Below the pieces are notes generated by a model. That model was not told where the DNA came from, searched no databases, and saw only the letters and a program-made list of their open reading frames with translations. The position numbers and the translations under genes are program-made. Positions 860-32,986 of a DNA stretch of 64,000 nt are shown piece by piece. Source of the stretch: a virus. Lineage: Duplodnaviria; Caudoviricetes. Numbering within the stretch: position 1 is the first letter of the stretch; each line of letters opens with the position of its first letter. The stretch lies in IMG/VR virus record IMGVR_UViG_3300032327_000792; one strand, written 5' to 3'.

Positions 860-934
860 TGGCGTCCCGTAGGAGAATCGAACTCCTCTTACCTGCGTGA
901 AAGGCGGGTGTCCTAACCGATAGACGAACGGGAC
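860..934 (-). tRNA. tRNA-Glu(UUC)
   Basis: GTCCCGT...anticodon loop CTTTCAC...GTTCGATTC...ACGGGACGCCA; cloverleaf with encoded CCA. Confidence 0.95.
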
Positions 935-959: not shown

Positions 960-1139
960 TCAGCGGTCGGTGTGCCATGCCACAGGCAGTTGTGTGCGTG
1001 CATCAAGCATGGATCGAGCTCGATTGATTTTGTTCTGCACGAGTTGCTGTGTCTGCTCTTTGGTTAAAAAAGCGGAAGTAGCATCAAACGCCTTTTGGAC
1101 GATTGCTTCGTGCAATTTTGTATGGTCTACTGATTGCAT
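960..1139 (-). CDS. Hypothetical protein (59 aa)
   Basis: Hand-translated MQSVDHTKLHEAIVQKAF...WHTDR with AGGAAG SD. Confidence 0.6.
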   Translation of the reverse strand: MQSVDHTKLHEAIVQKAFDATSAFLTKEQTQQLVQNKINRARSMLDARTQLPVAWHTDR

Positions 1140-1174
1140 GTGTTCTTCCTTTTTGAGATTATAGTTGTGTTACA

Positions 1175-1458
1175 AACATGCCAGCTTATTCTGTTACGAG
1201 GAAAACTGGCCAAACCCTAAGCAGTGTTTAGGCTGCTAAAGCGAACTGTGCGTCGTTTGCATTTACGTGTTTTGCTTCTACAACCGGGTATCCCCAGTCC
1301 TAAGGAGTTTCACATTCCCCTGTTGTCCACTCATTTACTCTTTGTCCAATCGATTACCGGAGCACCCCCACCTAAATATACCTTATACACTTAGGTGGAG
1401 GTGATGGGATTCGAACCCATGTCTTGAACACTTTTCTCTTTGCTTCATACAACAATAA
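1175..1458 (-). ncRNA. ssrA: Circularly permuted (two-piece) tmRNA
   Basis: Acceptor piece (T-arm GGGTTCGAATCCC, CACCTCCACC ending near 1394) lies upstream of the coding piece starting GGGGGTG at 1369. The acceptor stem has G3:U70. Tag ORF 1260-1228 is ANDAQFALAA*. Terminal hairpin GCCAG...CTGGC at 1180-1210. Outer ends are approximate. Confidence 0.92.
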
Positions 1459-1462
1459 CTTA

Positions 1463-1493
1463 TATTTATAACACAAATGTCGAATGTTGTCAA
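1463..1493 (-). promoter_or_regulatory. tmRNA promoter (sigma70 with overlapping T4 late-type TATAAATA)
   Basis: TTGACA-N17-TATAAA; the -10 element is also TATAAATA. Confidence 0.75.
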
Positions 1494-1521
1494 ATATTAC
1501 GGTTTCGACATAAATAATATT

Positions 1522-2607: not shown

Positions 2608-2700
2608 TGGCGGAGAGTTAGGGATTCGAACCCTAGATGGACTGTTTAGATCCATGTCCGCTTAGTAGGCGGATGCCTTCGACCGCTCGGCCAACTCTCC
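2608..2700 (-). tRNA. tRNA-Ser(ACU), type II
   Basis: GGAGAGT acceptor stem, G73 discriminator, long variable arm (ATGGA/TCCAT), anticodon arm TCCGC-CTACTAA-GCGGA, encoded CCA. Confidence 0.9.
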
Positions 2701-2711
2701 TGTCGTTAACT

Positions 2712-2788
2712 TGGTGGGCCGAGAGTGATTCGAACACTCCACCAAAGGATTATGAGTCCTCTGCTCTAACCTAATGAGCTACCGGCCC
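2712..2788 (-). tRNA. tRNA-Ile2(CAU)
   Basis: GGGCCGG/TCGGCCC acceptor stem with C4-G69 and C5-G68, A73, anticodon loop CTCATAA. No C1:A72 mismatch, so it is not an initiator tRNA. Confidence 0.85.
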
Positions 2789-2800
2789 GACTAAGTTAGT

Positions 2801-2829
2801 AGTATAACTGAATCAGTTATAGTTGTCAA
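2801..2829 (-). promoter_or_regulatory. sigma70 promoter of the tRNA cluster with an embedded 19-bp palindrome
   Basis: TTGACA-N17-TATACT; TATAACTGA-A-TCAGTTATA at 2803-2821. Confidence 0.75.
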
Positions 2830-3753: not shown

Positions 3754-4206
3754 TTAGACATGTAAATTACTTTCCGCTGAATGTTTGGAATAAAATGGTC
3801 CATGAAATGCATAACGTTCTAGTGCAATTAGTTTGGGGTCTTGTATGATTTTCCACTTGCGGCCACGTTTGACAGTGTACCATCCAGCAGCAAACCAAGA
3901 CTTGGATTTTTTTGTTTTGGTGTACAATGGTAACTGATGCGGAACATCCCATACAGGATTGTGTACTCTACCACTGGCTGGATAACCATGCACCAAGTGT
4001 GTGTCTGGTTTACTGGTCTTGACTTCTGTTTCAAAATGTATGTTGGTTCGTTGCTGAACCATTCGAATAGTTTTGTATTTTTCTACGTTGTTGTTTATGG
4101 TAACTTGATACCCACCAGGACATGCTTCAACGTTGCCAACCTTTTCGTTGTCTTTTTGCAATATCCAAAACTTTTTGTCTATCACAGGTTTAGCTATGAT
4201 TGTCAT
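3754..4206 (-). CDS. Hypothetical phage protein
   Basis: 150-aa ORF overlapping the end of rnh, AAGGAG SD. Confidence 0.7.
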   Translation of the reverse strand: MTIIAKPVIDKKFWILQKDNEKVGNVEACPGGYQVTINNNVEKYKTIRMVQQRTNIHFETEVKTSKPDTHLVHGYPASGRVHNPVWDVPHQLPLYTKTKKSKSWFAAGWYTVKRGRKWKIIQDPKLIALERYAFHGPFYSKHSAESNLHV

Positions 4207-5200
4207 TTAATACTCCTTTGTATGTCTCGTTCATCCATCGACCAAACGAGTCTGCTGATTCGCTACACTTGATCAAATCATATTTGCCACAAAACTGCAT
4301 GAATCTCACGCCCACTTGCCCTACATCTTTGTGGGACATCTGTTCACGGATGGCACCGTCCACGGATTGTTTGATGTTGTCAGGTTGTGCTGTTAAATCA
4401 ATCAGGGCCACATTGCGATTGTAGTCATCCAACACTCTGTGTTCCGCACCGTTATGATCCGTCCATCGTTGTAACATCATGTTGTTCCAGTTATATCCTT
4501 GACGATCCCGATCCTCAAACGCTTCTTGAAGTCCAACTTTGTTTTTGGTGCCTTTGGTTCTTACTCCAGGAAATGCAGAGAACACGTTGTCACTGGTATC
4601 ACCGCGCATACACTTTTCAAACAACAGCCATTTGGGATCTGGAATAGTTTTTGGTTCTTGCTTTTTCTTGTCAATAACTGCTTTGCCTTTGGCATCAAAA
4701 TAACCTTCCAGTGTGATGTGCTCGTCGCTGATGCCGTTGTACTGAGTAACATTGGGAGCAATCAATTGCACAAAGTCAGTGTCGCTGGAAATAATAATGT
4801 GTTCGTCTTGGGGGTGTAGCGCAATCCAACGAGCAATGATATCATCACCTTCTGCTGTTGGACATTGAATTACTGAGCAATTGGTTCTCTCAGCCAAGTA
4901 TTTAGTCAACGCATCATAAGTTTCCCAGAACATTTTGTCTTCGTCTTGTTCTGCTTCTGTCAGTGCAGCGCGAGCCACAGCACGGTTCTTTTTGTATGGA
5001 TCATAGAAGTCTTTGCGCCAGCTACGCCCTTCCAGTGCAAATACCACATGATCTGCTTTAAAACGTGTGGCTACTTTGTTGGCACTCATTAAGGTAACGT
5101 GCAGAGCAAAGCCAATTTTCTCCCAGGTGTCACTGGCACGAAAAGCACCATGTCTTGCTCTAAAGAACATGTTTGCTGTGTCTATTAACACATAACGCAT
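4190..5200 (-). CDS. rnh: T4-like RNase H / 5'-3' flap exonuclease
   Basis: LIDTANMFFR, FALEGRSWRK, EGDDII, ISSDTDFVQL, GDTSDNV acidic FEN/5'-nuclease motifs. Confidence 0.9.
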   Translation of the reverse strand: MRYVLIDTANMFFRARHGAFRASDTWEKIGFALHVTLMSANKVATRFKADHVVFALEGRSWRKDFYDPYKKNRAVARAALTEAEQDEDKMFWETYDALTKYLAERTNCSVIQCPTAEGDDIIARWIALHPQDEHIIISSDTDFVQLIAPNVTQYNGISDEHITLEGYFDAKGKAVIDKKKQEPKTIPDPKWLLFEKCMRGDTSDNVFSAFPGVRTKGTKNKVGLQEAFEDRDRQGYNWNNMMLQRWTDHNGAEHRVLDDYNRNVALIDLTAQPDNIKQSVDGAIREQMSHKDVGQVGVRFMQFCGKYDLIKCSESADSFGRWMNETYKGVLNDNHS

Positions 5201-32353: not shown

Positions 32354-32986
32354 TTATTTTCCAGCCTTTGCTAGGGCTGCTCCTTTGTTGAAACTGGGCG
32401 ACCATGGACTCATTCCATCTACTCCGCCACGTGCTCTTGACCAGTTGTATCCGGCTCTGTGTCCAGAACAATCCTTGGTACATTCACTGCCCAAAAAACT
32501 CAACTCGTCCAACTGATCCTTGAGAAAGGTATCAGCAAATGCCTTGCATAACTCTCGAATCTTGGTGTTGCGTGTATATTGTGTGTGAAACTGTTTGCCT
32601 TCAAATGTCTGAGCAGGATCTTTATAACCGCAATAAACTTTGTGTATACCGTGCTGTTCAATCAGATCCTGACAACTTTTGCCTTCACGTTCGGCCATGA
32701 ACTCGTTGCAAGGACTCAGTGTGGTTATCACAATACTGCCCTCTGGTACGGGTCCAAACCTGGCAGTGTAGTTGTCAATTGCTGCACGTTCGGCATGTGT
32801 TCGACGACCGTCTTGCGCAGGACGATTGATACCCACTACACAGTTGTTGTTGGGATCCAACACTGCAGCGCCAACCATGCCCAAGTTTTGATTTCCGTAC
32901 TGTCCTTGAATCACCAGTTCACACAGTTTTGTCAAGATTGAATCTAACTTATCATGATTGTGAATTTGGAAGTCGGAGATCCTCAT
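32354..32986 (-). CDS. Zn-dependent cytidine/adenosine deaminase-fold protein with C-terminal Cys module
   Basis: VGAAV, THAERAA, TLSPC-x11-C; tail CTKDCSGHRAGYNW. Confidence 0.8.
   Translation of the reverse strand: MRISDFQIHNHDKLDSILTKLCELVIQGQYGNQNLGMVGAAVLDPNNNCVVGINRPAQDGRRTHAERAAIDNYTARFGPVPEGSIVITTLSPCNEFMAEREGKSCQDLIEQHGIHKVYCGYKDPAQTFEGKQFHTQYTRNTKIRELCKAFADTFLKDQLDELSFLGSECTKDCSGHRAGYNWSRARGGVDGMSPWSPSFNKGAALAKAGK

Follow-up and report, generated by a model that had tools for sequence, protein, structure and literature searches.

The serine codons AGU and AGC (AGY) are read by the standard tRNA-Ser(GCU), a class II tRNA with G73, a long variable arm and G34 in the wobble position. 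Anticodons of the ANN type were described as 'universally missing' in split codon boxes, in cells and phages alike (PMC8007984), and the explanation given for this absence is that A34 cannot discriminate between codons (PMC6103715). Gene-encoded A34 that stays unmodified was reported for the Mycoplasma capricolum tRNA-Thr(AGU) and the yeast mitochondrial tRNA-Arg(ACG), which serve four-fold boxes in which loose reading is harmless, and unmodified A34 in other tRNAs was reported to accept C or indeed any of the four bases (reviewed in PMC6103715). In the split AGN box, which serine shares with arginine, such reading would endanger AGA and AGG, and this is the usual argument for the avoidance of A34 in split boxes. 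In tRNA-Arg(ACG), A34 is converted to inosine (I34) by TadA, which requires the motif TACG containing G36 (PMC12255301; PMC5630033). The anticodon ACU itself was used in an engineered orthogonal tRNA-Pyl(ACU) for the reassignment of AGU in E. coli lysate, where it was more efficient on AGU than the GCU variant; the template had been purged of AGA/AGG as a precaution and the result is therefore silent on fidelity at these codons (PMC6158751). In a literature search we found no paper on a natural prokaryotic or phage tRNA-Ser(ACU).

A tRNA of this kind is encoded in the DNA analysed here, a 64,000-nt stretch (the window) of the IMG/VR virus record IMGVR_UViG_3300032327_000792 (Duplodnaviria; Caudoviricetes):

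2608-2700, minus strand: tRNA-Ser(ACU), class II, 93 nt, with G73 and encoded CCA (ARAGORN and Rfam)

ARAGORN calls the gene as tRNA-Ser(act), and the Rfam tRNA model RF00005 matches it over its full length with 55.8 bits (E 2.5e-9; gathering score 29). Its acceptor stem has 7 bp (GGAGAGU/ACUCUCC), its D stem 3 bp (G10-C25, C11-G24, C12-G23), as is typical of bacterial serine tRNAs, and its anticodon stem 5 bp (UCCGC/GCGGA). The long variable arm of approximately 21 nt forms its own stem of 5-6 bp, and the T arm (UAGGG/CCCUA) is followed by the discriminator G73 and the encoded CCA. The cloverleaf is without mismatch, every stem pair being Watson-Crick. The anticodon loop is C32 U33 A34 C35 U36 A37 A38 (CUACUAA); the anticodon corresponds to plus-strand AGT at 2664-2666, with A34 as the complement of T at 2666. 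The sequence-only reading, in which an intact serine body with G73, a long variable arm and the loop CU-ACU-AA was described, proved correct throughout by ARAGORN, Rfam and the reading of the minus strand.

Although it is cognate to a serine codon, ACU lies outside the canonical set of serine anticodons (NGA or GCU). Bacterial seryl-tRNA synthetase (SerRS) recognises the long variable arm, the acceptor stem and the D stem and does not read the anticodon, and in E. coli the SerRS identity pairs are G2-C71, A3-U70 and C11-G24. All three are present in the window tRNA, and they are the most frequent pairs at these positions in an alignment of 51 ACU sequences (GC in 49/51, AU in 42/51 and CG in 42/51). 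Because the body carries the serine features and SerRS ignores the anticodon, the tRNA should carry serine. From tRNA-Ser(GCU), with which it shares the class II body, G73, the long variable arm, the D-arm pattern, the remaining loop bases and the place in phage tRNA arrays, the window tRNA differs in having A34 instead of G34; it would pair with AGU in Watson-Crick geometry and with AGC only by an A-C mismatch, and the ACU tRNAs form long-lived lineages of their own even if position 34 is masked. The gene-encoded A34 is shared with the M. capricolum and yeast mitochondrial tRNAs, with the unedited state being proposed for the window tRNA, but Ser(ACU) acts in a split box and not in a four-fold one. 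With tRNA-Pyl(ACU), which is artificial and differs in body and amino acid, it has the anticodon in common.

Taken together, we regard it as moderately probable that the gene encodes a functional serine tRNA which is charged with serine, leaves A34 as A and reads AGU by Watson-Crick pairing; its expression, its serylation, the non-editing of A34 and the restriction to AGU are the parts that we infer. In the proposed mechanism the tRNA would be transcribed early, as a pair with a neighbouring tRNA-Met, from a promoter of the host type, and would then be charged with serine by the host SerRS. As A34 would retain the pairing face of adenine, it would pair with the U of AGU in Watson-Crick geometry, whereas the host tRNA-Ser(GCU) would read this codon by G-U wobble only, and the phage would in this way boost the decoding of AGU, its top serine codon. 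The carriage of tRNAs for A/U-ending codons by AT-rich phages follows the same logic. The simplest interpretation common to all carriers is a tRNA dedicated to AGU that would be added to, or would replace, the wobble-reading GCU tRNA in AT-rich genomes.

The whole record comprises 84,997 bp with a GC content of 42.5%, and its completeness of 24% according to CheckV corresponds to a phage genome of approximately 350 kb; it encodes a family-B DNA polymerase and a ClpB-like ATPase and belongs to an uncultured freshwater giant (jumbo) phage. On the minus strand the exonuclease-like gene is followed by small ORFs, the promoter, a tRNA with CAU anticodon, tRNA-Ser(ACU), a 124-codon ORF, a permuted tmRNA, tRNA-Glu and the record end:

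4190-5200, minus strand: 5'-3' exonuclease-like gene
2801-2829, minus strand: predicted sigma-70-type promoter, TTGACA-17-TATACT (consensus scan, 11/12 match)
2712-2788, minus strand: tRNA with CAU anticodon (ARAGORN; Rfam 64.7 bits)
1137-1507, minus strand: permuted (two-piece) tmRNA with the tag ANDAQFALAA (Rfam tmRNA_permuted 108.7 bits, beta_tmRNA 102.1 bits)
860-934, minus strand: tRNA-Glu(UUC), the last tRNA before the record end (ARAGORN; Rfam 51 bits)

The predicted promoter stops 13 nt ahead of tRNA(CAU), which itself lies 11 nt upstream of tRNA-Ser(ACU), and the two tRNAs are probably co-transcribed. In the consensus scan, the region holds no more sigma-70-type sites in total than expected by chance. 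A TTGACA...TA(t/c)A(c/a)T box is found upstream of the tRNA-Met in about 20 non-identical relatives, with a spacer of varying sequence, and judged from this recurrence it probably drives early transcription of the Met-Ser(ACU) pair by the host polymerase. In most relatives the tRNA(CAU) likewise follows the 5'-3' exonuclease gene. Its G1-C72 pair argues against an initiator; it may be either an elongator tRNA-Met or a lysidine-dependent tRNA-Ile2 reading AUA, the latter of which would suit an AT-rich phage.

The tmRNA, placed by ARAGORN at 1137-1485, is part of the same translation-RNA block as tRNA-Ser(ACU). Permuted tmRNAs recur in the phage clade (L008, L012, L015, L017 and others), some with the short tags ANDAQFALAA or ANDEQFALAA and others with unusually long tags of approximately 29 residues, e.g., AKASTGEVTVSGKNVKFSARTAKAESFAV. 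Between tRNA-Ser and the tmRNA a perfect sigma-70 consensus (TTGACA-17-TATAAT) is present at 2078-2050 on the minus strand, and about 50 nt past it a strong intrinsic terminator with a 10-bp stem (1995-1972) and a subsequent T run; the minus-strand stretch 1962-2078 could encode a candidate small RNA of approximately 80 nt or a leader. The minus-strand ORF at 581-1006 overlaps tRNA-Glu and shows a marginal match to rpoZ, the RNA polymerase omega subunit (TIGR00690, E 4.4e-5, just under cut-off), that spans residues 90-135 (approximately 602-739). If this rpoZ-like gene is real, it probably starts downstream of tRNA-Glu.

Base 34 held up in the relatives, as A34 is kept in near-identical and in strongly diverged copies from independent metagenomes: among independent assemblies of other samples, one tRNA is identical to that of the window (L001) and others are 90-95% identical (L005, L022, L083, L084 and G003). 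Among relatives gathered via the flanking exonuclease protein, a route independent of the tRNA, Ser(ACU) falls into at least four diverged lineages with lengths of 88-93 nt and differing stems (L001, L005, L012, L013, L022, L055), and other relatives gathered in this way carry GCU (e.g., L020, L028, L040). Within the window's own lineage a compensatory change is seen, with U27-A43 in the window and C27-G43 in L005. A pattern scan with a generic D-arm-to-anticodon body containing ACT was performed on viral contigs and on bacterial contigs with one genome per species. It yielded at least 117 viral and at least 115 bacterial Ser(ACU) loci confirmed by ARAGORN (117/119 and 115/120, respectively, among the matches listed), which together comprise at least 204 distinct sequences; among the matches listed the bacterial loci are mostly from Saccharibacteria, Paceibacterota and other Patescibacteria. 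The pattern demanded Y32, U33, A37 and A38, so the conservation of these loop bases is imposed by the search. In 51 viral ACU tRNAs with less than 88% mutual identity, compensatory changes occur at 23 of the 25 stem pairs, the variable-arm stem included. In a tree computed from 392 distinct Ser(NCU) tRNAs with position 34 masked, the A/G state at position 34 changes 20 times compared to 131 times (minimum 118) with shuffled labels, a contrast that is not a probability since related sequences share labels, and the 19 nearest neighbours of the window tRNA among the tree sequences all carry ACU. The small number of changes indicates that A34 was inherited over long divergence and did not arise by sporadic mutation. 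By this sequence comparison A34 is shown to be under purifying selection across many lineages.

These data bear directly on the possibility that the tRNA, without any function of its own, derives from tRNA-Ser(GCU) as a neutral or decaying form, through a G-to-A mutation or an assembly error. ACU and GCU are indeed only one transition apart, but an error of assembly does not agree with the identical A34 in independent assemblies, and decay does not agree with a mismatch-free cloverleaf, with the persistence of A34 across the distinct sequences under stem compensation or with its clustering on the tree. A neutral variant or an error is contradicted by these comparative sequence data, and we judge it highly improbable.

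The statement of the sequence-only reading that bacteria read AGY codons with GCU holds for most bacteria, but overlooks the Patescibacteria and uncultured phages, in which serine tRNAs with ACU are common. Cultured phages with ACU were not found, the matches to the tRNA in the phage collection being GCU or UGA (Vibrio phages SBP1 and K479, Aeromonas TSW001, Acidovorax ACF1 and Salicola SCTP-2), and the Escherichia jumbo phages WPEC5 and A4 carry GCU only. Copies of Ser(ACU) are present in 4 of 81 sampled Polynucleobacter genomes, one of which (G030) has four. On account of these copies the genus was considered as the phage host, and it was rejected, as its ACU copies are sporadic and its tmRNA falls below the cut-off of the beta two-piece model. 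One of the Polynucleobacter genes (L237:3195-3284) abuts a tyrosine integrase gene (L237:3432-4658), and has a mismatched acceptor stem that is apparently chimeric; its sequence and position suggest the attachment site of a mobile element, or a tRNA carried as its cargo, and L240 is another copy.

The codon usage of the phages was analysed with respect to the proposed reading of AGU. A comparison of AGU and AGC, which the sequence-only reading had regarded as informative, revealed AGU as the most common serine codon of the window phage (AGT 32.7% and AGC 20.4% of the serine codons). Among the matches listed, ACU-bearing phage contigs are more AT-rich than GCU-bearing ones (GC 37.7% vs. 40.8%), no ACU-bearing phage contig exceeds 55% GC, and the AGU share of AGY is 0.67 in ACU-bearing and 0.62 in GCU-bearing contigs (p 6e-5). 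No AGU excess beyond the general T-over-C third-position bias was detected in ACU-bearing phages (regression coefficient 0.10 +/- 0.08; per-family table). As the preference for AGU does not go beyond the general bias at the third position, codon usage fits the idea of an AGU reader without singling it out. The arginine codon AGA is not avoided, accounting for 30% of the arginine codons in ACU contigs and 28% in GCU contigs (among the matches listed) and for 21% in the window phage, which argues against a harmful reading of AGA by tRNA-Ser(ACU). At AGA, the tRNA may discriminate well, may lose out to competing tRNAs, or may misread to an extent that the phages tolerate. tRNA-Arg(UCU), which could protect AGA from misreading, was not enriched next to Ser(ACU) (33 vs. 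42 of 117 loci, among the matches listed), nor does position 32 differ between ACU and GCU tRNAs. That the tRNA works unmodified, one of the options named in the sequence-only reading, is the option that is favoured: A34 persists through divergence, AGU is the top serine codon, AGA is not avoided, and ACU performed better on AGU in vitro (PMC6158751).

How ACU and GCU are distributed relative to each other depends on the genomes. In the fetched phage stretches they are rarely found together (2/117 ACU loci and 0/117 GCU loci, among the matches listed), whereas in 74 of the 115 bacterial loci listed, mostly from Patescibacteria, ACU stands beside a normal GCU. A replacement of GCU by ACU is valid for the fetched phage stretches only, the body pattern having missed the GCU gene of G003, one of three complete phage genomes with Ser(ACU):

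G005, complete, 238 kb, 31% GC: 26 tRNAs, for serine ACU and UGA and no GCU; AGT 1217 and AGC 102 codons; AGA 77% of the arginine codons
G004, complete, 233 kb: ten tRNA genes, for serine ACU only; AGT 1317 and AGC 599 codons; AGA 61% of the arginine codons
G003, complete, 344 kb, with terminal repeats, a close relative of the window phage: 29 tRNAs, for serine UGA, GCU and ACU; AGT 2407 and AGC 1220 codons

In G005 and G004, ACU is the sole AGY reader of the phage, and all nine standard-anticodon tRNAs of G004, Ser(ACU) included, read A/U-ending codons. In G003 the GCU and ACU genes are 9 kb apart. The window phage may likewise hold a tRNA-Ser(GCU) beyond the record, which represents approximately 24% of its genome.

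Phage tRNAs that escape tRNA-targeting defences via changes in the anticodon loop exist, and the changed wobble base could accordingly serve to escape a host anticodon nuclease or tRNA-targeting toxin that inactivates tRNA-Ser(GCU), with AGY codons still being decoded. The rare co-occurrence of ACU and GCU in the fetched phage stretches fits such a replacement. However, an escape is senseless where ACU is encoded next to a normal GCU, as in the bacterial loci, and the complete relative G003 keeps both tRNAs as well. Furthermore, the limitation of ACU to AT-rich phages is predicted by codon matching but not by escape from a defence, and nothing in the window hints at a defence that targets tRNA-Ser(GCU). 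To our knowledge, no defence or nuclease specific for tRNA-Ser(GCU) has been described. We consider nuclease escape quite improbable.

The other alternative to the dedicated AGU reader is a deamination of A34 to inosine by the host TadA or by a phage enzyme; the resulting ICU would read both AGU and AGC and would thereby replace tRNA-Ser(GCU) altogether. The sequence-only reading had pointed to a phage deaminase gene as a possible source of this activity, and a deaminase-like gene does exist at this position:

32354-32986, minus strand: protein with cytidine-deaminase fold, 210 aa (PF00383, 2e-12)

The protein contains the motifs HAE and PC-x10-C. Its best matches in NCBIfam and PDB are to the RibD pyrimidine deaminase domain, which is the sole specific similarity, and no match to TadA was obtained in NCBIfam and PDB even at E 10. 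Orthologs are confined to the closest clade (G002, G003). Two complete genomes of ACU-bearing phages, G004 and G005, lack them, and G005 is devoid of any PF00383 (cytidine-deaminase-fold) gene. The proposed editing to ICU by this enzyme is thus not supported, as it is RibD-like and not TadA-like, is missing from phages that carry the tRNA and the tRNA is shared by Patescibacteria; on the basis of these comparisons the deaminase is not considered to be part of the tRNA-Ser(ACU) system.

Editing by the host TadA would be possible in principle, since the loop CUACUAA, which shares six of its seven bases with tRNA-Arg(ACG), deviates from the TadA motif YUACGAA at position 36 only and is presented as a 7-nt loop on a 5-bp stem. 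Approximately one quarter of natural mRNA editing sites are one base off the motif, and more are with overexpressed TadA (PMC12255301; PMC5630033). Inosine would also fit with ACU as the sole AGY reader of G005 and G004. On the other hand, the window tRNA has U36 instead of the G36 of the core UACG in the substrate motif (PMC12255301; PMC5630033), and editing was lost or almost lost upon single mutation of any of the motif positions tested (PMC12255301). Different from the situation in tRNA-Arg(ACG), inosine in Ser(ACU) would cross the boundary between serine and arginine, as ICU would also pair with AGA; this codon accounts for 21-77% of the arginine codons of these phages, and its share is not reduced in ACU-bearing contigs. 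The use of I34 in the AGN box is known from no organism (PMC8007984), and tRNA-Arg(ACG), the known I34 tRNA, is rarer beside Ser(ACU) (6 vs. 26 of 117 loci, among the matches listed). Editing to inosine therefore appears improbable.

Ser(ACU) is a predicted serine isoacceptor whose anticodon belongs to a class that canonical tRNA sets lack, and it is above all a natural test of the split-box A34 rule. Judged from sequence conservation, selection maintains it in hundreds of sequences from phages and Patescibacteria, which contradicts the statement that such anticodons are 'universally missing' (PMC8007984). The genomes that bear Ser(ACU) use the neighbouring arginine codon AGA heavily, which constitutes a natural system for the old decoding question of what an encoded A34 reads and why it is normally avoided. 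The finding is relevant to the annotation of phages, to codon adaptation models and to the reassignment of sense codons, for which ACU anticodons are already in use. To this, the window adds a jumbo-phage lineage with a conserved putative early promoter and the decoupling of the tRNA from the nearby deaminase, and the complete relatives add ACU as the sole AGY reader or as an additional one. A more far-reaching and rather unlikely possibility is that the split-box A34 problem is solved in these tRNAs, either by a yet unknown feature that restricts reading to U, such as a modification of A34 or the context of the loop and t6A37, or because unmodified A34 discriminates intrinsically, and on the ribosome far better than textbooks assume. 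If this were true, Ser(ACU) would be the most common representative of a larger group of 'forbidden' ANN tRNAs that has escaped attention in aquatic phages, with class I tRNAs with AAA and AAG anticodons adjoining it.

These 77-nt class I tRNAs with the anticodons AAG or AAA are often found beside Ser(ACU) in the relatives (L005:16408-16484, L013:17123-17199, L020:16363-16439, L022:19686-19762, L017:6159-6235, L162:4621-4697, and both types in L131 at 5041-5117 and 4123-4199). They have A73, the acceptor sequence ACCCC.G and no long variable arm, and some of them carry C33 instead of U33. ARAGORN labels them as Leu and Phe; bacterial leucine tRNAs are class II, and the Leu label is doubtful given the class I body. 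From their sequences they may represent a second A34 tRNA family or mistranslating tRNAs. Asp(AUC) tRNAs called by ARAGORN at three ACU loci were rejected, as they look unreliable with odd stems and, in one case, an intron-like insert. At the start of the G003 genome, ARAGORN calls a tRNA-Pro(AGG) of 92 nt (G003:C1:521-612, the locus L470:521-612); this length is odd for a proline tRNA, which makes a false call possible. In G004, a tRNA with the four-base anticodon gaga is called by ARAGORN at G004:C1:29011-29085.
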